This document shows positions 30,671-45,902 of a DNA stretch of 64,000 nt, piece after piece; position 1 is the stretch's first letter; each line of letters starts with the position of its first letter. The notes under the pieces were generated by a model, which did not search any database, was not told where the DNA came from, and saw only the letters and a list, made by a program, of their open reading frames with translations. Where the stretch lies: the IMG/VR virus record IMGVR_UViG_3300031132_000002, one strand, 5' to 3'. The translations under genes and the position numbers were made by a program. This DNA is from a virus.

Positions 30671-31795
30671 TTAGTTTAAGGCATTACCTGCCTTTTCAAC
30701 ATAATTTAGAATCGTCTTAGAACGTTTCTCCAGCGGAGAAGAATTAAACACCTCAGACGGTTCTTTGTTTAGCTTTCTTGCTTGGAACAGTAACCAAGAA
30801 AAAGAAAGATCCTTGACAACGATAGCGAATTTCTTCTGCTCTTCAATGTCTTTAGCTACGTGCCACATAGCATCCGCTTGGTTGATAATCCAAGACTTAG
30901 CTTGAATCACAGGATCGAAATACTTCTTATCTTCTGGGAAGTAAGCCAAATACTCATCTTCTTCGCCAACAGCCACCAGATCTACAATTCGTTTCAGTGA
31001 TGGGATACCATTACCACGTAGATGATGAACAGCCACGTATGCTGGAGATTTAACTTTGCACACAGGGATGCCATCTTGATAAACAACATAACCTTCTGCC
31101 AAGTTAGGAAGTTTCTCTGCTGTCTCCTTACAGGCTTGAGCACTATCAAACTTATACTTCTTAACGTCAAGCCAGTTCATAACCCATAAAGAGTTACCTG
31201 GCACTGTTACATATTCGCCAGTATCATTCCGACGAGCACCTAAGAAGTGGAGATCATAACCCTCATATACCGTGACAACTCGGTTTTCACGACAAGTAAG
31301 TTCCAGGAGATATGTTACTCCACGGTCAAGGTCAGCCAGTTCTGCTGACGCCTCTACTTCTTCCATATAGTTAGCGTCAGAAGCTTTTACGCACAGATCG
31401 TGAAATGTGTATTCACTATTCATACATTGACTTTCAGCGAAGGCAGTACCACGAGTGGAGAAATGCCAAGCATCATTCCAATAATACAGCTTGATCAAGC
31501 TACCATCAATCTTATCTGCAATCTCCGCTATATCCCAATCTAAATGCGCCTGTGTCTCCGGCGCTTCATTGAGGTTGAAGAATCGGTCAAATGCACGAGC
31601 AACTACATTAAACTCCCTGTCGAGGATAAGTGCTCGGCACTCCATAACCAGAGGGTGCGTTTTAGGGCTATCGATCTGATCGTAGTTCAGGACATAAAGC
31701 CCTTCTTCTGGATACTCTTTCACCTTGATACCAGTAGATAAGGTTAACAGCGTCAGTGAGTTACCAGGTGTTTTCAGGAAGTCTGTTACTTGCAT
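30671..31795 (-). CDS. RNA ligase 1 (T4 Rnl1-like)
   Basis: ECRALIL, FDRFFNLNE, KIDGSLI, LLEL, EGYVV, KVKS..Y. Confidence 0.9.
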   Translation of the reverse strand: MQVTDFLKTPGNSLTLLTLSTGIKVKEYPEEGLYVLNYDQIDSPKTHPLVMECRALILDREFNVVARAFDRFFNLNEAPETQAHLDWDIAEIADKIDGSLIKLYYWNDAWHFSTRGTAFAESQCMNSEYTFHDLCVKASDANYMEEVEASAELADLDRGVTYLLELTCRENRVVTVYEGYDLHFLGARRNDTGEYVTVPGNSLWVMNWLDVKKYKFDSAQACKETAEKLPNLAEGYVVYQDGIPVCKVKSPAYVAVHHLRGNGIPSLKRIVDLVAVGEEDEYLAYFPEDKKYFDPVIQAKSWIINQADAMWHVAKDIEEQKKFAIVVKDLSFSWLLFQARKLNKEPSEVFNSSPLEKRSKTILNYVEKAGNALN

Positions 31796-31808
31796 TTTAA
31801 TTCTCCTC

Positions 31809-32831
31809 TTACAGTTTAGCCATATACCATTTACGAGATTTGTCAGAGATATTCTTACCAACATCTTTCATCGTCAAGCTGGATGCTTCCATAACATCAC
31901 CTTCTTCTTTAAGAATATCGGTGCTCATCCACTTAACAAACTCGCCAATCTTAGTCTTATCAAGGCCAACTTCACCCAGAGCCTGATTCAGGCGATTTTC
32001 AGTAACAGCGTATTCTACAAACTCTGTGATGTTTGCCATACGTTCTGGGTCAACACTGGCTAAGGTTTTGACCTTAGAGACAGAATGCTTATCACCTTTG
32101 ACTTTAAACCATAGTCCTGAATCAAGAGCTAAAGATTCATCTGCTGGTGTCCAAACAAAACCTTCACCGATACCGGAGATACCAAAGAACTTACCAACTG
32201 GACATTCTTTTTCAGCCTCTTCGGTGATCTGTACAAGCGTGTTCTGAATCAACTCTGGTTTTTCAAAGTCAATGTTCAGTGTGACGAAACCAAACTGCAA
32301 CACGTTAAAGATACGTGCTTCATTGTCATTTACGCTACCAATGATACCAGTAGGAAGCCATTTCAGACCACCGTTAGGGCGTTCACCAACCGCTACGCGG
32401 AACACAGTGAAGAAAGGATCTAGCTCAGTTACAGCAACACCTTTCTGGATGCCACGGCCTGCCCATTCGCCAGCGATTTCAACAGGGAACTCAAATGTGA
32501 TACCTTTCTCTTCACAGATATCTTTCACTTGGCCCAGAAGTTTAGCCATATCTTTCCGATGCATAAATGCTGCAAACCCAGCGTTGTCTTTACCGATATC
32601 CACCTGCTGCGCTTTAGACTGGAAGATAAACTCATCTTCTGAGCGGAACAGTACGCTACCATTTGTACCGTGGATTTTAACCGTACCGACATAAGGGATG
32701 ACGTAAGTTTCTGGAATCTTAGTGACGTGCTCCTGAGTTTCAGGATTGTAATGATCATACTCAAGTTGAGTTTTCATTGTACGTACAACCTGACGGAATT
32801 GATTTGTGCTCGGGTATTTTACATTGCTCAT
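31809..32831 (-). CDS. RNA ligase 2-family protein
   Basis: KYPS, VKIHGTN, GEWAG.GIQKG, EGFVW, FKVK. Confidence 0.85.
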   Translation of the reverse strand: MSNVKYPSTNQFRQVVRTMKTQLEYDHYNPETQEHVTKIPETYVIPYVGTVKIHGTNGSVLFRSEDEFIFQSKAQQVDIGKDNAGFAAFMHRKDMAKLLGQVKDICEEKGITFEFPVEIAGEWAGRGIQKGVAVTELDPFFTVFRVAVGERPNGGLKWLPTGIIGSVNDNEARIFNVLQFGFVTLNIDFEKPELIQNTLVQITEEAEKECPVGKFFGISGIGEGFVWTPADESLALDSGLWFKVKGDKHSVSKVKTLASVDPERMANITEFVEYAVTENRLNQALGEVGLDKTKIGEFVKWMSTDILKEEGDVMEASSLTMKDVGKNISDKSRKWYMAKL

Positions 32832-32832
32832 A

Positions 32833-33747
32833 TTAATTTCCTCCTACTTCGTGATGATCCCAGCTAACAATGCGTTTATTAGCCATAACTTTTCCTACTT
32901 CTGCCATAGAGACAGGGCGTAGGGATTTGGTGATACCTACAGTAGCATCTACTCCAACATCCATTGCCTTGCCCATATGTTGTTCCATTGCATTGCTACC
33001 GTGACAGTGACCAAACAGGTGCCAACTGTCTTTATGCATATCATCCCAACTTAAGATTGGGAAGTGACACATAGCAATCTTCTGCCCGTTCAGTGTAGTG
33101 CAAAAATAACTGCTGTCAACAAACTTTTGCTTAGGTAGGTTTACATCATAGTATTCCCACTCTTTTTCGCTGACGTGATTACCTTTCAGATGAATAATAA
33201 AACCGTTCAACTGCTCAAGTAGTTTCAAGCCTTTCGTCATACTACCAAGAGTGAGATCTCCCAGGTCAAACACTAAATCGTTAGGCTTCACCTGTTTATT
33301 CCACTCGTCGATAATCAACTGGTGCATCGTATCAATATCCGCAATGTGTTCGCGGTTATGTCGCAAAATGTTCTTATGAAGAAAGTGAACATCAGATACG
33401 AAGTGTACATTATCTTCCGAATAATGCAAGTCTTTCATTTGGTTTTTACGCAGAGCCTGTCTTTCTACATCAACAGCTTTTGCCCAATAAACATTACCTT
33501 TGATATAACCAAACCAAGGATAAATCCTGGCTAAGATAGGGCGACGACTTGGCTTACGGCCTGTTGACACGTAAAAATCAAACAATTCGTCAAAGATATC
33601 TCCGTCAAAGGACACCATCTCTTCGAAGATCATTACTGGAACCTTTCCAGTGAAAAGAGCCTTTCGTGCTAATACACGATCCATAGGTTCTTGTAGCTCT
33701 TCTCGGTAAGCCCTGAGGTAATCTAGTTTAATACTCACATCAGACAT
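32833..33747 (-). CDS. calcineurin-like metallophosphoesterase with N-terminal extension
   Basis: SDVHFLH, LGDL, GNH, CHFP, GHCH, DVGVD. Confidence 0.88.
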   Translation of the reverse strand: MSDVSIKLDYLRAYREELQEPMDRVLARKALFTGKVPVMIFEEMVSFDGDIFDELFDFYVSTGRKPSRRPILARIYPWFGYIKGNVYWAKAVDVERQALRKNQMKDLHYSEDNVHFVSDVHFLHKNILRHNREHIADIDTMHQLIIDEWNKQVKPNDLVFDLGDLTLGSMTKGLKLLEQLNGFIIHLKGNHVSEKEWEYYDVNLPKQKFVDSSYFCTTLNGQKIAMCHFPILSWDDMHKDSWHLFGHCHGSNAMEQHMGKAMDVGVDATVGITKSLRPVSMAEVGKVMANKRIVSWDHHEVGGN

Positions 33748-37166: not shown

Positions 37167-37383
37167 GATTGAACACAAAAGCCCTACAGTGAAAGAGAAG
37201 TTAAATCGAATTAAGTCAGGTTCTGTTTTCCTGATGGATAACGATTTTTATATCAAGTCGGATGAGACGGACGGATATGGTGATCCGCAATGTGTTCGCC
37301 TACGAGATGGCTGTCTTGTGTCACCAGACGAAGAAATGATTGTCCAGGTAGCAAATTCTGTTAAGATGGAGGTGTCATTATGA
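37159..37383 (+). CDS. hypothetical protein (paralog of previous gene)
   Basis: Shared motif pattern; GGAGG SD. Confidence 0.75.
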   Translation: MIEIEHKSPTVKEKLNRIKSGSVFLMDNDFYIKSDETDGYGDPQCVRLRDGCLVSPDEEMIVQVANSVKMEVSL

Positions 37384-38270
37384 GAATCACAATCCGCACT
37401 ATGTTAGGATTTAATCTTCAAAGTATCGAATGCCCGATTAAGAGTTTCACTTTCTCGGCTGGTGAGCAGCACGTAGTATTACCGAAAACACTTCAAGATA
37501 TCAGTTATGGCGATGAAGTGGTGATTGAAACTGAGATTCGTAGCGCAGAAGACTTTATGTTACTGGCTATGGTGAAAGACGCTATAACCCGCTGTGCGCA
37601 CTTCCACATTCCAGTTAAGCTGATTATGCTTTACGTTCCTTACGGTCGTCAGGATCGTGCCTGTGAAGCAGGAGAGGCATTCGGGCTTAAGGCTTTTGCT
37701 TCTATGCTTAACGCCTTGAAGTTTGACGAGGTTGTGATTGCTGATCCTCACAGTGATGTTACTCCGGCTCTGATTGAACGACTGACAGTTATCCCCCAGG
37801 AAGAGATTGTTAAGCAGATGCTTGGCGTTTACATTCCTAAAGAAGATTTCGCTATCGTTTCTCCTGATGCCGGAGCGTTGAAGAAAATCTTCAAGGTTGC
37901 TAAGGAATTAGGTGGTGTTGATGTGTATTGCGCAGAGAAGATTCGTGATACATCTACTGGTGCAATCAAACATACAGATATCTCTGTCAAAGATTTTAAA
38001 GGTCAGAATCTGATTATGGTGGATGATATCTGTGATGGCGGCTACACCTTCATTAAGCTGGCAGAACTGCTTCGAAGCCGCAACGCAGGACGTATCGATT
38101 TATACGTCACACACGGTATCTTCTCTAAAGGCTTACGTCCTCTAGAAGGAACTATTGATCGGGTTCACTCTCTCAACGTCTGGAAAGACAACATTGAAGC
38201 TGATCAGGATATCTTAGTGTTGAACCAAGGTATCAGTCGCAAAGTTTTACTGTCAAAATACTACAACTAA
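37380..38270 (+). CDS. ribose-phosphate pyrophosphokinase-like protein (probable ADPR-PP synthetase, Adps)
   Basis: FSAGEQHV, YVPYGRQDR, DPHS, SPDAGA, VDDICDGGYTF, VTHGIFS; adjacent to NAMPT-like gene. Confidence 0.9.
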   Translation: MRITIRTMLGFNLQSIECPIKSFTFSAGEQHVVLPKTLQDISYGDEVVIETEIRSAEDFMLLAMVKDAITRCAHFHIPVKLIMLYVPYGRQDRACEAGEAFGLKAFASMLNALKFDEVVIADPHSDVTPALIERLTVIPQEEIVKQMLGVYIPKEDFAIVSPDAGALKKIFKVAKELGGVDVYCAEKIRDTSTGAIKHTDISVKDFKGQNLIMVDDICDGGYTFIKLAELLRSRNAGRIDLYVTHGIFSKGLRPLEGTIDRVHSLNVWKDNIEADQDILVLNQGISRKVLLSKYYN

Positions 38271-38333
38271 GTATTGACAATAAGAAGGGAGGGTGTAGAC
38301 TCTCCCATATCAAAAACAAAGAGGAGAACAATT

Positions 38334-40037
38334 ATGGCTAAGCGCATTAAAAACCCACTGTTTAACACTGACGGCTACAAACCATCTCACATCGATCAGT
38401 ATGCCGATAATATGGATACGCTGTTTTCAAACTTCACTCCTCGTGGTGATAAGTATTTCACACACTACGCACCAAACGCACCGCGTGGCGTTATCTCTGC
38501 TGGTGTTCAGGGTGTTCTCAAAGAACGTCTGATTGACGACTGGAACGAAAACTTCTTCTCTCGTCCGAAGGATGAAGTGGTGGCTGAGTACTCGAAGTTT
38601 ATGACTCGTTACAACGGACGCCAGAACCGAACTGATCATATTGAAGCACTGCACGATTTGGGTTATCTGCCTCTATCAGTACGTGCGTTGCCGGAAGGTG
38701 TTCTGTGTCCTATCCAGGTTCCAGTGTATACAATTCACAATACCGTTAAAGGCTTTGCGTGGTTGGTGAACTATCTGGAAACTATGCTGAGTGCAGAAAC
38801 TTGGAAGACAATGAATAACGCAACCATTGCTTTCCAGTACCGCCTGCTTGGTGAACAGTACGCAGATTTGACCTGTGATTCTAAAGATCACCTAGCATTC
38901 CAGTTCCACGACTTCTCTGCTCGTGGTTTGTCTGGTATCGATGACGGATATCGCTCTGGCTTTGGTCACTTAATGTCATTCAAAGGTACTGATACTCTTC
39001 GTGCTGTTTGCTACGTAGATGATTTCTACTACGGAGAAGATACTTTTGTTGCTGGGAGCATTCCTGCATCTGAGCACAGTGTTGCAACAACTAATATTAG
39101 TGATATTCTCGCTAAACTGATGGTTGAAGTTGACGGCTTCGCAGCAATGAACATTGATGAACAACGATTCTTCTCTGAACTGGAGTTCTTGCGTAAATAT
39201 CTGACTCAGATTTACCCTGATGGCATTGTGTCTTATGTGGCAGACAGCTACGACTATTGGGCGCTGGTTACTGAGATCCTTCCAGTTCTGAAACAAGAGA
39301 TTATGGAACGAGATGGTAAACTGGTAATTCGTCCAGATAGCGGCAAGCCCCTGCATATTATCTGTGGATACTATGTTGAGACCTTTGCTTCTCGTGAGAT
39401 CTTTGAAAACTCAAGTCGTGCTCTTCTCACCGAAGTTGCATACATCGCAGATGAACAAGTTTACCTGCGTATTCAGGACAACGAGCAGTATGGTTACGAA
39501 GAGTACGTGGAGATTCCTCGTCACGAGGCCGTAGGTACTATCCAGGTGTTGTGGGAAGAGTTTGGTGGTAAAATCAACTCTAAGGGCTATAAAGAGTTAG
39601 ATTCTCATATTGGACTGATTTACGGCGATAGCATCACTGTTTCTCTGACCAAAGAGATCTTTAAGCGCCTGGAAGGAAATGGTTTTGCATCAAGTAACAT
39701 TGTTCTGGGTGTTGGTAGCTATACTTACAACTACAGCACTCGTGATACCTTCGGGTTTGCTTGTAAAGCTACAGGTTGTGTTATTGATGGTAACGAGATT
39801 CTTGTGAGCAAAGAGCCGAAGACTGATCCAGGTAAACGTTCTGCTCGTGGATTCTTAGCTGTTGTGGCAAATCCAGAAGGTGATTTGACTCTTGAAGATG
39901 GTTTGTCTTTGTCAGACGTTTCTCACCCTAAGAACGAATTGCTGGAAGTTTTCCGTGATAGTCTGATGGTGATTGATACTAATATTGATGAAGTACGAGC
40001 CACACTGGACGATACGGTACGTAAATATCTTAAATAA
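38334..40037 (+). CDS. nicotinamide phosphoribosyltransferase-like protein (probable Namat)
   Basis: TDGYK.SH, HDFSARG, GTDT, PASEHSV, DSYD, RPDSG, LIYGDSIT, RDTFGFA.KA; start after GAGGAG; own TTGACA promoter at 38274. Confidence 0.92.
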   Translation: MAKRIKNPLFNTDGYKPSHIDQYADNMDTLFSNFTPRGDKYFTHYAPNAPRGVISAGVQGVLKERLIDDWNENFFSRPKDEVVAEYSKFMTRYNGRQNRTDHIEALHDLGYLPLSVRALPEGVLCPIQVPVYTIHNTVKGFAWLVNYLETMLSAETWKTMNNATIAFQYRLLGEQYADLTCDSKDHLAFQFHDFSARGLSGIDDGYRSGFGHLMSFKGTDTLRAVCYVDDFYYGEDTFVAGSIPASEHSVATTNISDILAKLMVEVDGFAAMNIDEQRFFSELEFLRKYLTQIYPDGIVSYVADSYDYWALVTEILPVLKQEIMERDGKLVIRPDSGKPLHIICGYYVETFASREIFENSSRALLTEVAYIADEQVYLRIQDNEQYGYEEYVEIPRHEAVGTIQVLWEEFGGKINSKGYKELDSHIGLIYGDSITVSLTKEIFKRLEGNGFASSNIVLGVGSYTYNYSTRDTFGFACKATGCVIDGNEILVSKEPKTDPGKRSARGFLAVVANPEGDLTLEDGLSLSDVSHPKNELLEVFRDSLMVIDTNIDEVRATLDDTVRKYLK

Positions 40038-40809: not shown

Positions 40810-40839
40810 TTGACACGGCATCAAAAACCGTGTTAATAT
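40810..40839 (+). promoter_or_regulatory. sigma70 promoter opening the RNA cluster
   Basis: TTGACA ... TGn-TAATAT with AT-rich UP element. Confidence 0.7.
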
Positions 40840-40857: not shown

Positions 40858-40978
40858 GATGCGTCTGGCGAAATAGGTAGACGCGGGGGAATAGGGAATC
40901 TACTACGGTTGAGCGCCGTAGCTTACCGGAAGCCGCCGATGACTCACACATTACAGGTTCGAGTCCTGTTACGCATCA
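40858..40978 (+). ncRNA. tRNA-like RNA (~121 nt), Leu-type D arm, anticodon region replaced by insert
   Basis: GATGCGT/ACGCATC terminal stem, GCG-AAATAGGTAGA-CGC D arm, ACAGG-TTCGAGT-CCTGT T arm; no encoded CCA. Confidence 0.7.
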
Positions 40979-40984
40979 ACTAAC

Positions 40985-41091
40985 GCCGGATAAGCCCTTG
41001 GGTAAGGGCGGGGCCATCAAAGCCCGAAAACAGCATTCACTTTTAGGGTGGTGTGAATACATAGGTGGTTCGACTCCACCATCCGGCTCCA
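40985..41091 (+). ncRNA. tRNA-like RNA (~107 nt), 6-bp D stem, UCA-centred loop, long extra arm
   Basis: GCCGGAT/ATCCGGC-T-CCA; GCCCTT-GGGT-AAGGGC; GGGC-CATCAAA-GCCC; GGTGG-TTCGACT-CCACC. Confidence 0.7.
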
Positions 41092-41172
41092 ATTTTGCTT
41101 AATGCTCTGTTCATTATTATAGTGAGCAGATTACTAATCAAAAATAAATAATTCTTAGAGGAGAATATAGAT

Positions 41173-41781
41173 ATGTCAGAAGTTAAAAAAGTAATCACCG
41201 TAGCAGACCGTTCTACCAAAGCACTGAACACCGCAGCAACTGGCCTGGTTAAAATTACTCAGGATCTGGCAGCAATCGCTGACCAAGCAGTTTCTCTGGC
41301 GACAGACATTGAGTACAAGCAGAATGACCTGGACAATCTGAATCAGCAGTTCGATACTAAATTCCGTGAAGCTTCCGCTGAACTGAAACTGAAAGTAATC
41401 GAAGACGAAGATAAAGTACTCGGCACTCTTCTGAAATCTCGTAGTCTGGTAACTATTGATCCTAAAGAACTGGCAACCCTTCGTTCCGATCTGGCTGTAG
41501 CTCAGGATTCAAATGAAGATGCGCTGGCAGAAGCCAAGTCAGCGGGTGAACGTTCAGCAGCCATCGCGTTTAACGCTCAGAAGTCTGCAATCGAATCAAA
41601 CCATCGCGTAGCTATCGCTCAGTTCGAAGCTAACGAGAAGTCGTTTGAACAGCGTATTGCCTTCCTCGAAGAGCAGAACAAAGATCTGAAAGGTCAGATT
41701 ACCGCAGAACGTGAAACCCGTCTGGAAATCGCTCGTGCTGATGCGCAGCGTCAGGGCGTTACCGTTAACAACGGCAAGTAA
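41173..41781 (+). CDS. coiled-coil protein within RNA cluster
   Basis: 202-aa Ala/Glu/Lys/Gln-rich helical ORF, GAGGAG SD. Confidence 0.85.
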   Translation: MSEVKKVITVADRSTKALNTAATGLVKITQDLAAIADQAVSLATDIEYKQNDLDNLNQQFDTKFREASAELKLKVIEDEDKVLGTLLKSRSLVTIDPKELATLRSDLAVAQDSNEDALAEAKSAGERSAAIAFNAQKSAIESNHRVAIAQFEANEKSFEQRIAFLEEQNKDLKGQITAERETRLEIARADAQRQGVTVNNGK

Positions 41782-41787
41782 TTTAAT

Positions 41788-41809
41788 AAGCCCCTTCGGG
41801 GGCTTCTTT
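41788..41809 (+). terminator. UUCG-loop terminator hairpin
   Basis: AAGCCCC-TTCG-GGGGCTT then CTTT. Confidence 0.7.
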
Positions 41810-41987
41810 AGAAGTGTTTTAATGTAGAGAAAATGCGGAGTCCGATCCGCTGCTTAGATAATGTGTGCTTAACTGCTACCTGAAAGACTGATCAATATAG
41901 TAGGAATACTTGAGAGATGGTATGACTTGGTGCCTCACGTTGGAGTTCGGAGCCAACTTCTCTAAATTAAAATATTTATCGGAGGTA

Positions 41988-42167
41988 ATGATGAAACCAT
42001 ATGGACATACAGAGAAAGATAACTCTATCTGTGGTTGGGGTTGCTGCTTCCATCCTGACCGCACCCAGCGACATTGGACTTGTCGTAAGATAATTGATAA
42101 AGCCAAAAGAAAGAAAGCTCGTCGAGAAGGGAGAAAAGAGATTGACTTACAAAAGACATTCGAATAG
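41988..42167 (+). CDS. small basic Cys-rich protein
   Basis: GGAGG SD; MMKPYG...CGWGCC...KRKKARREG. Confidence 0.55.
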   Translation: MMKPYGHTEKDNSICGWGCCFHPDRTQRHWTCRKIIDKAKRKKARREGRKEIDLQKTFE

Positions 42168-42327
42168 AATCAAAGCTAAATCACCTAAGAGAGTCTTAGA
42201 ATGGTGCGGTTGTGATCGTGCTCTTGTAGGCATAAATCAAAAATGTCCGGTATGTGGTGTAGTAAATGGAAATAAGAAGAAAAGATTTAAAAAACATATT
42301 GACTTCGATACCATTTCTGTAGTATAG
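42094..42327 (+). CDS. small basic zinc-ribbon protein (start uncertain)
   Basis: WCGCDRALV....KCPVCG. Confidence 0.55.
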   Translation: MIKPKERKLVEKGEKRLTYKRHSNRIKAKSPKRVLEWCGCDRALVGINQKCPVCGVVNGNKKKRFKKHIDFDTISVV

Positions 42328-42363
42328 TTACCTCACTGACCAACAAGGTTTAAAATAATATTT

Positions 42364-42440
42364 GCTCCGTTAGCGCAATTGGATAGCGCAAGAGATTTCT
42401 ACTCTCTAGGTTGGGGGTTCGAGTCCCTCACGGAGTGCCA
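42364..42440 (+). tRNA. tRNA-Arg(TCT)
   Basis: Cloverleaf; AGAGA-TT TCT AC-TCTCT; CCA encoded. Confidence 0.92.
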
Positions 42441-42637
42441 GTTTGCGTCTGGTATATGCGTTGATTTAGAATTGTAGCGTTTGTAGACTAGCCTTCTTGT
42501 CGAGCACAATCTAATGAAATATACAAGCCATCGTTTTTAAAAGTTATTGTAACTTTTTGTTTTCCGATCATAGTAAGTAACCCCGCTTGCGGCGACAGAG
42601 GGGTACAATTTCAAATAATCATATAAGGAGAGACATA

Positions 42638-42814
42638 ATGGGTAAGAAAGTAAGCGCAGTAGATAAGATCATTCAGCCTTTCCAGTTTGAGAGCAAGTCT
42701 ACTCAGACCGAAAGCAAGCCAGTAGAAATGACCATTAACGGCGAAGTGAAGAAAGTGTCTCACCGTATCCGTACTGGTAAAACGAAGCGTGAACGCGCTC
42801 GCTCTGGTAAGTAG
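42638..42814 (+). CDS. small basic protein
   Basis: AAGGAG SD; MGKKVSAVDK...RIRTGKTKRERARSGK. Confidence 0.7.
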   Translation: MGKKVSAVDKIIQPFQFESKSTQTESKPVEMTINGEVKKVSHRIRTGKTKRERARSGK

Positions 42815-42902
42815 TAAATAGTTTAAAATAGTTGTTGACAGATAATCAAATACGTGGTACATTGGTATTAAGTAGAGAAGATTGTTAGTTAACAACTACT
42901 TA

Positions 42903-42992
42903 GGAAGATAGGGTTTATGGTAAACAACTGGTCTTGAAAACCAGCCCATCGGTTAGTAGCTGGTGATGGTTCGATTCCATTATCTTCCTCCA
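42903..42992 (+). tRNA. tRNA-Ser(TGA)
   Basis: CTGGT-CT TGA AA-ACCAG, long variable arm, CCA. Confidence 0.92.
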
Positions 42993-42997
42993 AATTT

Positions 42998-43073
42998 GGG
43001 GATATAGTTTAGCTGGTAAAAATACTGGACTGTCACTTCGGAGCCACGGGTTCGATTCCCGTTATCCCCGCCA
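42998..43073 (+). tRNA. tRNA-Asp(GTC)
   Basis: CTGGA-CT GTC AC-TTCGG; G73; CCA. Confidence 0.92.
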
Positions 43074-43114
43074 ATTAAGATATTGAGTGAGAAATCACAC
43101 CAATAAGAAGTAAT

Positions 43115-43208
43115 GGAGAATTAACCCTAATGGTAAGGGAAGTGTTTGCTAAACACTCAGTAGTCGCGGAAACGCGGCGTATCAGTTCAAGTCTGATATT
43201 CTCCTCCA
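43115..43208 (+). tRNA. tRNA-Ser(GCT)
   Basis: AGTGT-TT GCT AA-ACACT, long variable arm, CCA. Confidence 0.92.
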
Positions 43209-43209
43209 C

Positions 43210-43286
43210 GCATCGCTAGCTAAACTGGATAAGGCATCTGACTTTTAATCAGAATACTGGAGGTTCGAATCCTCCGCGATGCACCA
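43210..43286 (+). tRNA. tRNA-Lys(TTT)
   Basis: TCTGA-CT TTT AA-TCAGA; CCA. Confidence 0.93.
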
Positions 43287-43354
43287 AACAAAAAGTAAAA
43301 TAAATCTTTACTTCTGAATACTTTTATGATAGAGTATTGATAAATAAGGTTTAA

Positions 43355-43436
43355 GGGGATGTGGCGGAGAGGCCGAACGCACCTGACTGTAAATCAGGCA
43401 TACCACGCCCTGGTTCGAATCCAGGCAGCCCCACCA
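43355..43436 (+). tRNA. tRNA-Tyr(GTA)
   Basis: CCTGA-CT GTA AA-TCAGG; CCA. Confidence 0.92.
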
Positions 43437-43441
43437 AATAA

Positions 43442-43527
43442 TGAAATCGAAATAAGGGAAGACGAGATGGCGTGATCTATATCACTCAGTCCTTCGGGGA
43501 TACAAGCTCGAAAAGTAGATTTCACCA
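43442..43527 (+). ncRNA. CCA-ended multibranch RNA, not a cloverleaf
   Basis: TGAAATC/GATTTCA-CCA closing stem; CGAG/CTCG enclosing GTGAT-CTAT-ATCAC and a CC-TTCG-GG hairpin. Confidence 0.55.
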
Positions 43528-43533
43528 AACAAC

Positions 43534-43609
43534 GATTCTATAGCTATAATGGTAGAGCAGTGGACTGTTAATCCACCGGTTGCAGGTTCGAGTCCTGCTA
43601 GGATCGCCA
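43534..43609 (+). tRNA. tRNA-Asn(GTT)
   Basis: GTGGA-CT GTT AA-TCCAC; G73; CCA. Confidence 0.93.
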
Positions 43610-43615
43610 AATAAT

Positions 43616-43691
43616 GCTTGTATAGCTCAGTAGGTAGAGCAGTTGCCTTGTAAGCATCAGGTCACGAGTTCGATTCTTGTTGCAAGCACCA
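43616..43691 (+). tRNA. tRNA-Thr(TGT)
   Basis: GTTGC-CT TGT AA-GCATC; CCA. Confidence 0.92.
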
Positions 43692-43705
43692 AATTATCAA
43701 GCGAA

Positions 43706-43756
43706 CGCGCCTGATGAGTCTTTGAAATAAGACGAAACGCTGTGAAGCGTAGCGCG
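43706..43756 (+). ncRNA. type I hammerhead ribozyme (predicted cleavage after GUA, position 43751)
   Basis: Stem I CGCGC/GCGCG; core CTGATGA; stem II GTCTT-TGAAAT-AAGAC; GAAA; stem III CGCT-GTGA-AGCG; U16.1-A17. Confidence 0.9.
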
Positions 43757-43767
43757 GAGTATCCCAA

Positions 43768-43876
43768 GAAGGGGAATAACTGGATACCAGTAGAGACTTC
43801 TCTAAGTATTTTCCAACGAGAATATTTAGAGCGTGGGTGTGCAATGTCTCTATATGCAGCACACAGCTAGCCCTTC
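43768..43876 (+). ncRNA. putative pseudoknotted structured RNA
   Basis: GAAGGG/CCCTTC; ACTGG-ATA-CCAGT; AGAGAC/GTCTCT; 14-bp hairpin 43800-43831; crossing pair GTGTGC/GCACAC. Confidence 0.6.
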
Positions 43877-43882
43877 AACATT

Positions 43883-43959
43883 GCGAGTTTAACTCAGTCT
43901 GGTAGAGTGTCTGCCTTCCAAGCAGTTCGTCATCGGTTCGAATCCGATATCTCGCTCCA
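43883..43959 (+). tRNA. tRNA-Gly(TCC)
   Basis: CTGC-CT TCC AA-GCAG; U73; CCA. Confidence 0.92.
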
Positions 43960-43965
43960 AATTAT

Positions 43966-44053
43966 ATCGTGGTATACAAATTGGCCTAAGTAACCAGACT
44001 TTCAATCTGGCGCAGTTTTCTGCTTACGGGTTCGAATCCCGTCCACGATACCA
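43966..44053 (+). tRNA. type II tRNA with TTC (Glu) anticodon on a Leu-like body
   Basis: ATCGTGG/CCACGAT-A-CCA; CCAGA-CT TTC AA-TCTGG; variable arm GCAG-TTTT-CTGC. Confidence 0.8.
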
Positions 44054-44058
44054 AAAAA

Positions 44059-44130
44059 GAAGCTATAGTTTAATGCAAAACTTGTCACTTCCGAGATTGA
44101 CAAATGAAGATTTATCTTCTAGCTTCACCA
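44059..44130 (+). ncRNA. degenerate tRNA-like RNA
   Basis: GAAGCTA/TAGCTTC-A-CCA; D arm GTTT/AAAC; TTGTCA-10-nt loop-TGACAA; T arm GAAGA-TTTA-TCTTC lacking TTC. Confidence 0.65.
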
Positions 44131-44136
44131 AATTAT

Positions 44137-44283
44137 CGGATAGATGCAATATGAAAGTGCAGCGTTAGGGTTCGCAAGTTGGCGCTTGTTTGACTAACAA
44201 AACATAATTAGTATGGGCATTTCAAGAATACATAGCCTCGCCAAAGGAGATGTAAGAAGGTTCGACTCCTTCCTGTTCGCCCA
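44137..44283 (+). ncRNA. tRNA-like RNA (~147 nt) with multi-stem insert
   Basis: CGGATAG/CTGTTCG-C-CCA; GAAGG-TTCGACT-CCTTC T arm; internal hairpins. Confidence 0.65.
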
Positions 44284-44289
44284 AATGAT

Positions 44290-44363
44290 TGGCCTATAGT
44301 GTAGAGGTAGCACAGGAGCCTTTGACTCTCCTAGCCCAAGTTCAATTCTTGGTGGGCCTGCCA
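44290..44363 (+). tRNA. tRNA-Gln(TTG)
   Basis: GGAGC-CT TTG AC-TCTCC; G73; CCA. Confidence 0.9.
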
Positions 44364-44395
44364 AATTTTAGTGCTTTCAATGAGAGCATTAATGT

Positions 44396-44472
44396 GTGGC
44401 TATATCATAATGGCTTAATGACGCTGCTTGTGATGCAGTTCTATGTGGGTTCGAGTCCCATTAGCCACCCCA
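44396..44472 (+). tRNA. tRNA-His(GTG)
   Basis: GCTGC-TT GTG AT-GCAGT; C73; CCA; genomic -1 base is T. Confidence 0.9.
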
Positions 44473-44540
44473 AAAAGCTTATTTACAACTCTAAGTAACT
44501 ATGCTATCATCCTTTTCATTACTAGAATAGGAGATGACGT

Positions 44541-44903
44541 ATGAAAAGTTGTGAGTATTGCAAGAAAGAATTTGAAGTAGTGCGAAAACACGGAGGAAAC
44601 AACAGAACATTTTGTTTTGATTGTGTTCCAGAAGGCTTAACCAAGAGCGAGAGAGCTAGAGTACATCAAGATATTCGTGGTATCAGATCTAAGCTTATGA
44701 AATTAGAATTAGGTTGTCACGTATGTGGTTATAAAAGATGTTCCGAGGCTTTAGAGTGGCATCACCCTACAAGTGATAAACTTCACGATCCTTCTAACGC
44801 TATTAAGAGATCTTGGGAAGCATATTTATTAGAGATTAAAAAGTGTATTCTTCTTTGCTCAAACTGTCACAGAGAAGTGCATTCAAATATTATCAGTCTG
44901 TAG
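44541..44903 (+). CDS. HNH (homing) endonuclease
   Basis: CEYC..CFDC; CHVCG...LEWHH...KCILLCSNCHREVH. Confidence 0.9.
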   Translation: MKSCEYCKKEFEVVRKHGGNNRTFCFDCVPEGLTKSERARVHQDIRGIRSKLMKLELGCHVCGYKRCSEALEWHHPTSDKLHDPSNAIKRSWEAYLLEIKKCILLCSNCHREVHSNIISL

Positions 44904-44970
44904 CGCAGCCAGGTAGCGTGATTCCTTTGGAAGGAATGGGTCGTAGGTTCAAATCCTACCGGACTGACCA
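44894..44970 (+). tRNA. tRNA-Pro(TGG)
   Basis: CAGTCTG/CGGACTG-A-CCA; ATTCC-TT TGG AA-GGAAT. Confidence 0.92.
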
Positions 44971-45004
44971 AACAATAGAAATCGAAGATGGTATCGGTTT
45001 CAAA

Positions 45005-45079
45005 GCGACTTTGACATAGACGGATGTGTGCTGCCCTGAAAAGGCAGAAAGGCTGGATCGTTACCAGCAGGTCGCACCA
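45005..45079 (+). tRNA. tRNA-Phe(GAA)
   Basis: CTGCC-CT GAA AA-GGCAG; atypical T loop ATCGTTA; CCA. Confidence 0.85.
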
Positions 45080-45083
45080 TTTT

Positions 45084-45156
45084 GCAGGTGTCCTGATGGA
45101 CAGGCAACACTCTACGAAGGTGTTTGTTCGAGGTTCGAATCCTTGCATCTGCACCA
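45084..45156 (+). tRNA. tRNA-Arg(ACG), compact non-canonical D arm
   Basis: GCAGGTG/CATCTGC-A-CCA; 1-nt connector; CCTG-ATGGA-CAGG; AACACT-CT ACG AA-GGTGTT. Confidence 0.8.
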
Positions 45157-45240
45157 TATCAAGGCTACGATTCCCTAATTGAAGATAGGATTCTGATAGG
45201 GCCGTGGATAATGCTTTTAGTTTAAAGCTGATTTAACAAT

Positions 45241-45322
45241 AGCGGTATAGTGAAACGGACATATAGATCACACTAGGCTCATACCCTAGTAATTGCGGGT
45301 TCGACTCCCGCTACCGCAACCA
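45241..45322 (+). tRNA. tRNA-Met(CAT), initiator-like
   Basis: A1/A72 mismatch; CTAGG-CT CAT AC-CCTAG; enlarged D loop; CCA. Confidence 0.85.
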
Positions 45323-45329
45323 AACAAAT

Positions 45330-45414
45330 GCTCTTGTGGCGAAATTGGTAGACGCACCAGATTTAGAATCTGGCGTTGAGAGACGTGTGAGTTCGAGTCT
45401 CACCAAGAGCACCA
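45330..45414 (+). tRNA. tRNA-Leu(TAG)
   Basis: GCG-AAATTGGTAGA-CGC D arm; CCAGA-TT TAG AA-TCTGG; variable arm; A73; CCA. Confidence 0.93.
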
Positions 45415-45420
45415 AACAAT

Positions 45421-45565
45421 GTCGTAGTGATACAAAGCGAAAGAAAGATGGTTACGAGATACTTCCTCGACGGAGGTGGTGATGTGATTAATCGCTGGAG
45501 TAATGAGGATCACAGGTGGAGTTGATCGCCTTCTCTGAGAGGTTCGAATCCTTTCTACGATGCCA
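45421..45565 (+). ncRNA. tRNA-like RNA (~145 nt) with multi-stem insert
   Basis: GTCGTAG/CTACGAT-G-CCA; AGAGG-TTCGAAT-CCTTT T arm; hairpins ACTTCC/GGAGGT, GGTGAT/ATCGCT, GATCA/TGATC. Confidence 0.65.
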
Positions 45566-45571
45566 ATCAAT

Positions 45572-45652
45572 GCGTGGGTCACTAATCCTGGTGGTCAGGA
45601 GACGGCTTCCAAACCCGTTAGTTCAGGTGTTCGAATCATCACCTACGTGCCA
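45572..45652 (+). tRNA. tRNA-Trp(CCA)-like, atypical 8/4 fold
   Basis: GCGTGGGT/ACCTACGT-G-CCA; TCCTG-GTGGT-CAGGA; ACGG-C-TT CCA AA-C-CCGT; GGTG-TTCGAAT-CATC. Confidence 0.7.
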
Positions 45653-45657
45653 AATAT

Positions 45658-45733
45658 GGGAATATAATTCAGTTGGTAGAATGCTCGACCGATAATCGAG
45701 TCGTCACTGGTTCGAGTCCAGTTATTCCCACCA
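45658..45733 (+). tRNA. tRNA-Ile(GAT)
   Basis: CTCGA-CC GAT AA-TCGAG (C33); CCA. Confidence 0.9.
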
Positions 45734-45870
45734 TATCCGCGCCAGCGGTGTAGATGTAAAAATCTACGGACACTTTATGTGTCCATCTTCGAAGACTAAT
45801 GCCTAGTTCCTTCAAAGAGTAGCCGAAAGGCAAGTTAGAGGGCTGCGACTCTTCAACGCAGGCAAAACTT

Positions 45871-45902
45871 AAGCCCCTGCCCTTTTAGGGTGGGGGTTTT
45901 TT
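45871..45902 (+). terminator. rho-independent terminator of the RNA cluster
   Basis: CCCCTGCCCT-TTT-AGGGTGGGGG plus T-tract. Confidence 0.85.

Follow-up and report, generated by a model that had tools for sequence, protein, structure and literature searches.

Phage T4 carries in its tRNA operon an RNA of about 140 nucleotides (nt), RNA C (rnaC, species 1; NC_000866 70908-71046, minus strand), which has been seen on Northern blots as a stable late RNA and whose function is unknown (PMC9697503, PMC3014915); our search of the literature found no paper on that function. Bacterial RNase P recognizes its substrates by the acceptor stem, the T stem-loop, and the CCA (RCCA) at the 3′ end (PMC11143913). 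Here we examine a tRNA operon on the plus strand of a 64,000-nt stretch of viral DNA (IMG/VR record IMGVR_UViG_3300031132_000002; the whole stretch is called the window), in which seven tRNA-ended units (E1 to E7) and a complete type I hammerhead ribozyme are interspersed among about 19 tRNA genes (40858-45899). The operon probably encodes non-decoding, tRNA-derived RNAs that are excised as tRNAs are, with several origins and under unequal constraint.

A tRNA-like module that lets host tRNA enzymes set the ends of an RNA is used in engineered tRNA scaffolds, in the mascRNA of MALAT1, and in the tRNA-microRNA units of gammaherpesviruses. Those strategies are eukaryotic or synthetic; in the window, module and body are one molecule. 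Irregular tRNA polycistrons, allo-tRNAs, and the tRNA-Other of B. cereus are similar in being clustered, with nonstandard cloverleaves and a proposed regulatory role (Mukai et al. 2017, PMC5389517), but they are of normal size, keep the anticodon loop, and have 8/4 or 9/3 branches, whereas the window units have 7/5 branches and bodies of 104-147 nt. RNAs of this kind are already known from T4, and the operon is therefore not categorically new; what is new is RNA C beyond the T-even group, the definition of the E2 family, and the presence of several such families in one operon.

Anatomy Shared with the Neighboring tRNAs

The original prediction, made from the DNA letters, named six elements with an acceptor-like terminal stem. 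All six (E1 to E6) are closed by a terminal stem of 6-8 base pairs (bp), and a seventh unit, E7 (45572-45652), also closes with a terminal stem. Its statement that most of them end in CCA holds for five of the six (N-CCA is encoded by E2, E3, E4, E5, and E6; E1 is the exception), and the T arm that it described as often intact is canonical (5 bp with a TTCRANY loop) in E1, E2, E5, and E6, as well as in E7; E3 has no T arm and E4 only a 4-nt loop. The linkers, 5-7 nt long, are alike for odd units and tRNAs, running from N-CCA through an A-rich stretch to what is usually a U at position -1, so that both follow the punctuation pattern ...NCCA AAYNAU/G.... Units are spaced 1-7 nt apart, except where open reading frames (ORFs) or spacers lie between them.

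Shells were sought throughout the window as a T stem of 5 bp with a TTCRANY loop, closed perfectly over 7 bp and followed by a tail. The plus strand gave 18 sites, all within the array and all with NCCA, and the minus strand of the whole 64 kb gave two weak sites, neither with CCA; the restriction of the sites to one strand and to the array indicates that the unit anatomy is correctly described and lies far beyond chance.

These units are not canonical tRNAs, for which we required the gathering score of the Rfam model RF00005 (29 bits) and a 7-nt anticodon loop. E1, E2, E3, E5, E6, and E7 have no match to the model even at E = 10; E4 reaches 36.1 bits (44059-44127), but its anticodon loop has 10 nt and its T loop 4. 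Nor are the seven units one class. Metagenomic relatives of the region, ranked by identity, are contigs L002 (= L027 = L051), at about 90%; L026 and L028, at 82-90%; and L003 (= L050), at about 78%. The prediction of unrelated interiors does not hold throughout: E2 and E5 belong to conserved families, and E4, E7, and perhaps E3 look degenerate. In E1 the shell has been kept while the interior was replaced.

A Relative of T4 RNA C

E5 (44137-44283, +) is, as judged from covariance models, covariation, and a loop-loop helix, the local ortholog of T4 RNA C. An analogy with the stable RNAs of T4 had been drawn in the original prediction, and for E5 it turns out to be literal, the models finding the homology in both directions. 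The unit consists of an acceptor stem, a long arm A, an arm B, a T arm, and C-CCA, and it resembles RNA C in lying on the tRNA strand of a tRNA operon, in its length of about 140 nt, and in having a terminal acceptor-like stem and a canonical T arm. Both RNAs also begin the acceptor stem with 5′ CGG..G and have the same order of seven helices.

A covariance model built from three E5 sequences alone recovered T4 rnaC at full length (53.6 bits) along with its counterparts in three other Tevenvirinae, NM4.3 (57.8 bits), KaAlpha (53.6 bits), and KM16 (39.4 bits), and gave tRNAs 25 bits at most. Conversely, a model built from eight T-even rnaC sequences scored E5 at 48.3 bits and its L003 ortholog at 49.9 bits (41-50 bits over E5 and two orthologs) and found nothing else in 189 kb, including four Vequintavirinae arrays; the matches are significant both ways. 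In a joint alignment (A9) carrying the E5-derived structure, the paired fraction of cells is 93% (34-46% when partners were slid as a control), and both sides have changed in 29 of 43 pairs, although the fitting of the alignment to the model biases these pair counts toward the structure. E5 is 89% conserved in L003, compared with 78% for the neighboring protein gene, and wherever L003 differs within a predicted pair the pairing is preserved.

The tip of the long arm (UUGGCG) is perfectly complementary to the anticodon-like loop (CGCCAA), forming a predicted 6-bp loop-loop helix that is fully paired in seven sequences and includes one covarying pair (an A-U to G-C switch). The pair UUGGCG/CGCCAA occurs in E5 and in two T4-like contigs (L088 and L140), and UUGACG/CGUCAA in T4 and others, so that E5 and T4 RNA C share a UUGRCG/CGYCAA helix. 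With its anticodon-like loop locked in this helix, E5 could not present an anticodon or decode.

The two RNAs also differ. E5 belongs to a Vequintavirinae-type myovirus, whereas the phage of T4 RNA C is a member of the Straboviridae; sequence identity is low, and blastn finds no match. CCA is encoded by E5 and by some Klebsiella T4-like copies, whereas T4 RNA C reads ACA; E5 carries a G3-U70 pair that T4 RNA C lacks; and no rnaD-like partner is seen beside E5, unlike in T4. A blastn search of E5 against 50,697 phage records returned no match, and an exact motif taken from E5 was found only in contigs L002 and L003. A scan with a loose RNA C pattern produced mostly noise, with three real matches left after model filtering, all of them T4-like.

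E5 was also considered as a transfer-messenger RNA, but ARAGORN finds none there, and as the site of a mini-ORF, but the differences between the window and L003 in its 17-codon frame all change the amino acid.

The E2 Family

E2 (40985-41091, +) is a member of a conserved tRNA-like family that spans two phage families. It has 7/5 acceptor/T branches, a 6-bp D stem with a 4-nt loop, a long variable arm, U73-CCA, and a 4-bp "anticodon" stem bearing the loop CAUCAAA. Full-length relatives with the same four stems and linkers were found by blastn in Henunavirus, Seunavirus, Mydovirus, and Vequintavirus phages and in one Schitoviridae phage, and 14 IMG/VR contigs, mostly 120-149 kb long, contain the motif. 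In an alignment of 14 sequences from the two phage families (A3), nine of 21 pairs have compensatory changes and none is broken. The constants of the family are the 6-bp D stem with its 4-nt loop, the long variable arm, the linkers GAAAA and AAUACAU, and U73-CCA. The Schitoviridae member (L057, Salmonella phage UTK0002, an N4-like podovirus; 251-358) is full length and lies beside a tRNA-Asn; the presence of this element in an N4-like podovirus points to transfer between phage families. The papers that we searched contain no description of the E2 family or of tRNA-shell RNAs in Vequintavirinae.

Most GenBank records leave the E2 homolog unannotated, and two (Erwinia phages Hena1 and pEp_SNUABM_01) label it "tRNA-TERM / tRNA-sup(tca)". 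E2 is a full-length member of this Vequintavirinae element, and as a name for the whole family the suppressor label is unsuitable. The label and the UCA in the 7-nt loop of E2 are grounds for regarding the odd units as unusual but working decoders, with E2 as a UGA suppressor or selenocysteine-type tRNA, E7 as a tRNA-Trp (it has a CCA anticodon and G73), and E1, E5, and E6 as tRNAs from which intervening sequences are removed, in keeping with the fit of the ARAGORN intron mode to E1, E2, and E5. We regard this as very improbable. The loop is 5-7 nt long across the family and is not conserved (CAUCAAA, AAUCAAG, CAUCCA, CCUCAA, UUUUA, and CAGCCA), with A at position 33, so E2 is not a decoder; UCA is not conserved in the relatives, and TGA terminates 12 of 61 long ORFs in the window. 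Group I introns are far longer than the inserts, structure is conserved in the interior of E5, and the intron-containing ARAGORN readings of E1, E2, and E5 are forced fits.

As a tRNA-Sec (RF01852), E2 scores 36.5 bits against a gathering score of 47, with a 7/5 rather than an 8/5 branch, U73 rather than G73, and A33; the 6-bp D stem with its 4-nt loop and the long arm are its only tRNA-Sec-like traits, and the phage's own tRNA-Ser outscores it on that model. The 6-nt loops of the family (CAUCCA and CCUCAA) resemble the arm-B loop of RNA C (CGYCAA); no kissing partner loop is seen in E2.

The Hammerhead and Its Companion RNA

The ribozyme that the original prediction placed in the cluster is, by its sequence, a type I hammerhead. 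Its core (43706-43756, +) has stem I at 43706-10/43752-56, CUGAUGA at 43711-17, and GAAA at 43734-37, with a predicted cut after A43751 (GUA); as read from the sequence, every conserved hammerhead position is present in type I topology (three stems, stem I open). Stems II and III covary in six phages, in which N7 is U, C, or A and H is A or C.

Between the cut and the 5′ end of tRNA-Gly lies a 131-nt RNA (43752-43882, +) that is predicted to be pseudoknotted. In a MAFFT alignment from seven phages (A4), pairing covers 98.7% of cells, with compensatory changes in 18 of 51 pairs; the pseudoknot helix is 100% paired with two covarying pairs, and the fold z-score is -3.0. Hammerhead and 131-nt RNA occur as one unit in unrelated phages: in two T5-type metagenomic contigs and in Pectobacterium phages Pappous and Taid, and also in Dickeya phage Setonix and an Enterobacter autographivirus. 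Both in Pappous and in the window, a tRNA begins within a few nt 3′ of the 131-nt RNA, which would therefore be bounded by the ribozyme cut and a predicted RNase P cut.

The nearest described counterparts are the theta ribozymes, small self-cleaving motifs that, like the predicted one in the window, lie on the tRNA strand within a few nt of phage tRNAs (PMC3088659, PMC10879173). Those are related to the hepatitis delta virus ribozyme, whereas the window ribozyme is a hammerhead; unlike them, it lies 14 nt past a CCA, so that it does not directly trim a tRNA 3′ end, and it travels with a conserved pseudoknotted RNA.

Units under Unequal Constraint

E1 (40858-40978, +) is a shell derived from tRNA-Leu, with an acceptor stem, a Leu-type D arm, a T arm, and no Rfam tRNA match. 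Its D arm is shared with the tRNA-Leu(UAA) found at the same place in L003, and its anticodon arm is longer by about 40-50 nt. In L026/L028 most of the interior has been replaced relative to the window, while the acceptor, D, and T stems remain 100% paired, with double (compensatory) changes at four of the 15 pairs of the shell. A search with E1 yielded a 30-nt chance match only.

E6 (45421-45565, +) is a 145-nt orphan shell composed of an acceptor stem, an arm of about 85 nt, a short arm, a T arm, and G-CCA, in the same four-way layout as RNA C. An E6 covariance model recovered the window and L002 only, blastn against the 50,697 phage records gave no match, and an exact E6 22-mer matched a single viral contig and no bacterial genome.

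The other three units are probably young or decaying. E3 (43443-43527, +) is an 85-nt unit with a terminal stem of 6-7 bp followed by A and CCA, a three-way interior with a UUCG hairpin, and no T loop; it is identical in L002. E4 (44059-44130, +), a degenerate tRNA despite its Rfam score, retains an acceptor stem and ACCA; its place in L003 is taken by a ribosome-binding site and a 14-codon ORF. E7 (45572-45652, +) looks like a damaged tRNA-Trp, with a CCA anticodon in a loop of 7-9 nt, G73, and five extra nt before the D stem; it is called by neither ARAGORN nor the Rfam tRNA model and could be a poor tRNA-Trp.

These units invite the view that all the odd units are functionless pseudo-tRNAs, decaying amid the rapid turnover of an array shuffled by homing endonucleases. 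The arms of E4 and E7 are tRNA-like but defective, there is an HNH gene in the array, whole units are inserted or deleted among relatives, and E6 has a relative in only one contig. We nevertheless consider it improbable for the set as a whole: the stems of E1, E2, and E5 are held by compensatory changes, E2 and E5 persist in phage families with almost no common DNA, and a decaying gene would not retain a 6-bp tertiary loop-loop match.

The reading that we prefer, non-decoding RNAs excised like tRNAs, has its own difficulties in addition to the bias in alignment A9. The encoded CCA of E1, present in L002, L026, and L028 as A-CCA one register over, has been lost in the window by one substitution (it reads ACT), which suits decay. 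E5 and E6 are represented by only three and two close sequences in their own lineage, and relatives show indels in the 3′ acceptor strand and discriminator of E5. The hammerhead's sole Rfam match is to a permuted model (Hammerhead_3), at 29.1 bits against a gathering score of 48.5. E3 and E4 are not conserved in L003 (78% identical), where E3 is absent and E4 replaced. The original prediction had named free decay between close relatives, without compensatory changes, as part of the outcome that would count against it, and by that standard E3 and E4 behave like freely decaying sequence.

Proposed Processing and Possible Function

In the proposed mechanism each odd unit would place the coaxial acceptor-stem/T-arm half of a tRNA, usually with N-CCA, around a remodeled body. 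Since the odd units keep the RNase P determinants and the linkers of tRNAs, excision and stabilization in the manner of tRNAs is the simplest reading. They would be cut from a polycistronic transcript by RNase P and 3′-end trimming enzymes, as their tRNA neighbors are, and the excised units would persist as stable RNAs of 85-147 nt; the 131-nt RNA would be released otherwise, with its 5′ end made by the hammerhead and its 3′ end by RNase P cutting at tRNA-Gly. The units probably have independent origins: E1 is a tRNA-Leu derivative, E2 and E5 are members of conserved families, and E6 is lineage-specific. We infer that the units are transcribed, are processed in a manner dependent on RNase P and CCA, and are stable.

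The central idea of the original prediction, that tRNA ends serve as a processing chassis, is well supported by the anatomy and by the T4 precedent: tRNA-ended units lie in the operon with tRNA punctuation, and the shell stems of E1, E2, and E5 have been kept by compensatory changes. Because their stems covary, E1, E2, and E5 are likely to have a selected function; selection is also indicated by the way in which E2, RNA C, and the hammerhead unit have spread horizontally. That the conserved units act by tying up a protein, of host or phage origin, with affinity for tRNA-shaped RNA is a conjecture that we hold rather loosely.

A more specific proposal, made in part by the original prediction, is that the conserved units (E2, E5, and perhaps E1 and E6) are counter-defense decoys or inhibitors of nucleases or sensors that act on tRNA, of the PrrC/RloC, PARIS AriB, or PtuAB types. 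Phage tRNAs are known to counter such systems (10.1101/2023.03.15.532788; PMC13096335), the units are tRNA-shaped yet non-decoding, they have spread horizontally among virulent enterobacterial phages, and the same phage has RNA ligases and nicotinamide adenine dinucleotide (NAD)-salvage genes, typical of counter-defense. The RNA repair genes that, in the original prediction, might belong to the same system are present (an Rnl1-like RNA ligase, an Rnl2-like RNA ligase, and a phosphoesterase; 30671-33747, -, given here as context), but their tie to the units is that of a shared genome only.

We think a decoy or inhibitor role unlikely. The loops that would have to mimic a particular anticodon loop are variable in E2 and base-paired in E5, and are unsuited to that purpose; T4 RNAC, reported to be a late RNA (PMC9697503), would come late for such a role; and nothing in the sequence analysis of the units points to one. 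In its broadest form the proposal would make the operon an RNA counter-defense island of at least four independent non-decoding tRNA-shaped families (the RNA C homolog, E2, the E1 type, and E6), each excised by host tRNA enzymes and each blocking its own, separate target among the host nucleases and sensors that act on tRNA. This seems quite doubtful, but if it were true, T4 RNA C would gain a function at last.

Operon Layout and Genome Context

The window derives from a large virulent myovirus related to rV5, phi92, PVP-SE1, and Hena1 (Vequintavirinae), with whose counterparts its NAMPT-like protein shares 52-59% identity. The order Prs, NAMPT, small ORFs, and tRNA array is common to the window, Hena1, and pEp_SNUABM_01. 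The adjacent Prs-like and NAMPT-like genes form an NAD-salvage pair (37380-40037) directly upstream of the array, syntenic with Hena1. A megablast search of the whole region against the phage collection matched single tRNAs only and revealed no close relative.

A sigma-70-type promoter (40810-40839, +; TTGACA, an 18-nt spacer, and TAATAT with TG), conserved in L002, L026, and L028, is predicted to drive E1, E2, and a 202-amino acid ORF (41173-41781, +; phrog_9325) that would be cotranscribed downstream of these two units; a hairpin with a T-run follows the ORF at about 41788-41809. Homologs of this ORF anchor the tRNA regions of the relatives. Further promoter-like sites, at 42299 and 42835, are assigned to the tRNA array; with the promoter at 40810 and the terminator at 45871-45899 they frame the transcription units.

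The array proper (42364-45733, +) contains 18 units above the Rfam tRNA gathering score: Arg, two Ser, Asp, Lys, Tyr, Asn, Thr, Gly, Glu (class-II-shaped), Gln, His, Pro, Phe, Arg, CAU, Leu, and Ile. The count of about 17 tRNAs in the original prediction agrees with the 17 called by ARAGORN, to which Rfam adds a tRNA(CAU) at 45241-45319 (52.6 bits). In this tRNA (45241-45322), overlooked by ARAGORN, the D loop is 14 nt long and the acceptor stem is topped by an A1-A72 mismatch. The tRNA-Glu(UUC) (43966-44053) is 88 nt long and class II in shape, with a long variable arm that is paired, unusually for bacterial tRNA-Glu; it is kept in L002 and L003. An HNH endonuclease ORF (44541-44903, +; phrog_2255, E = 4e-21) lies within the array.

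After tRNA-Ile, a structured 3′ spacer with five predicted hairpins (45734-45870, +; fold z-score -3.99) leads to a strong intrinsic terminator (45871-45899, +) at the end of the operon; L002 has a 10-nt insertion in one loop of this spacer. L002 also contains about 320 extra nt between tRNA-Thr and the hammerhead (L002:12587-12903), ORF-free and helix-rich, and an extra ORF between tRNA-Asn and tRNA-Thr, neither of which is in the window.

tRNA-Ended RNAs in Other Phages

Unannotated long shells with the same punctuation are present in Hena1 (120 nt), SNUABM01 (147 and 122 nt), Mydo (101 nt), and T5-like contigs (130-220 nt), and the phenomenon is therefore general. The Henunavirus arrays include unannotated units with A-CCA ends at L055:11923-12045 and L056:7489-7613 (120-122 nt) and at L055:7414-7505 (a class of 89-91 nt), whose T-like loops read CGAUAC rather than UUCGA. 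The T5-like shells at L008:9466-9688 (220 nt), L008:9050-9202 (150 nt), and L006:9514-9646 (130 nt) have a canonical T arm and closure, and the 220-nt shell recurs in at least five contigs.

The function of T4 RNA C and RNA D has been open since the 1970s (PMC3014915, PMC9697503), and the array offers fresh comparative material. An RNA C homolog in so distant a lineage points to the features that have been selected, namely the tRNA-like top half, the order of the helices, and the loop-loop lock, and the phage that carries E5 would provide a second genetic system for deletion tests of RNA C. In rV5/PVP-SE1-type phages, several of which have been considered for therapy, a widely conserved tRNA look-alike has been missed or mislabeled as a suppressor tRNA. 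The shared punctuation and the unannotated long shells suggest that stable RNAs with tRNA ends form a general class among large virulent phages, and one that is under-annotated.

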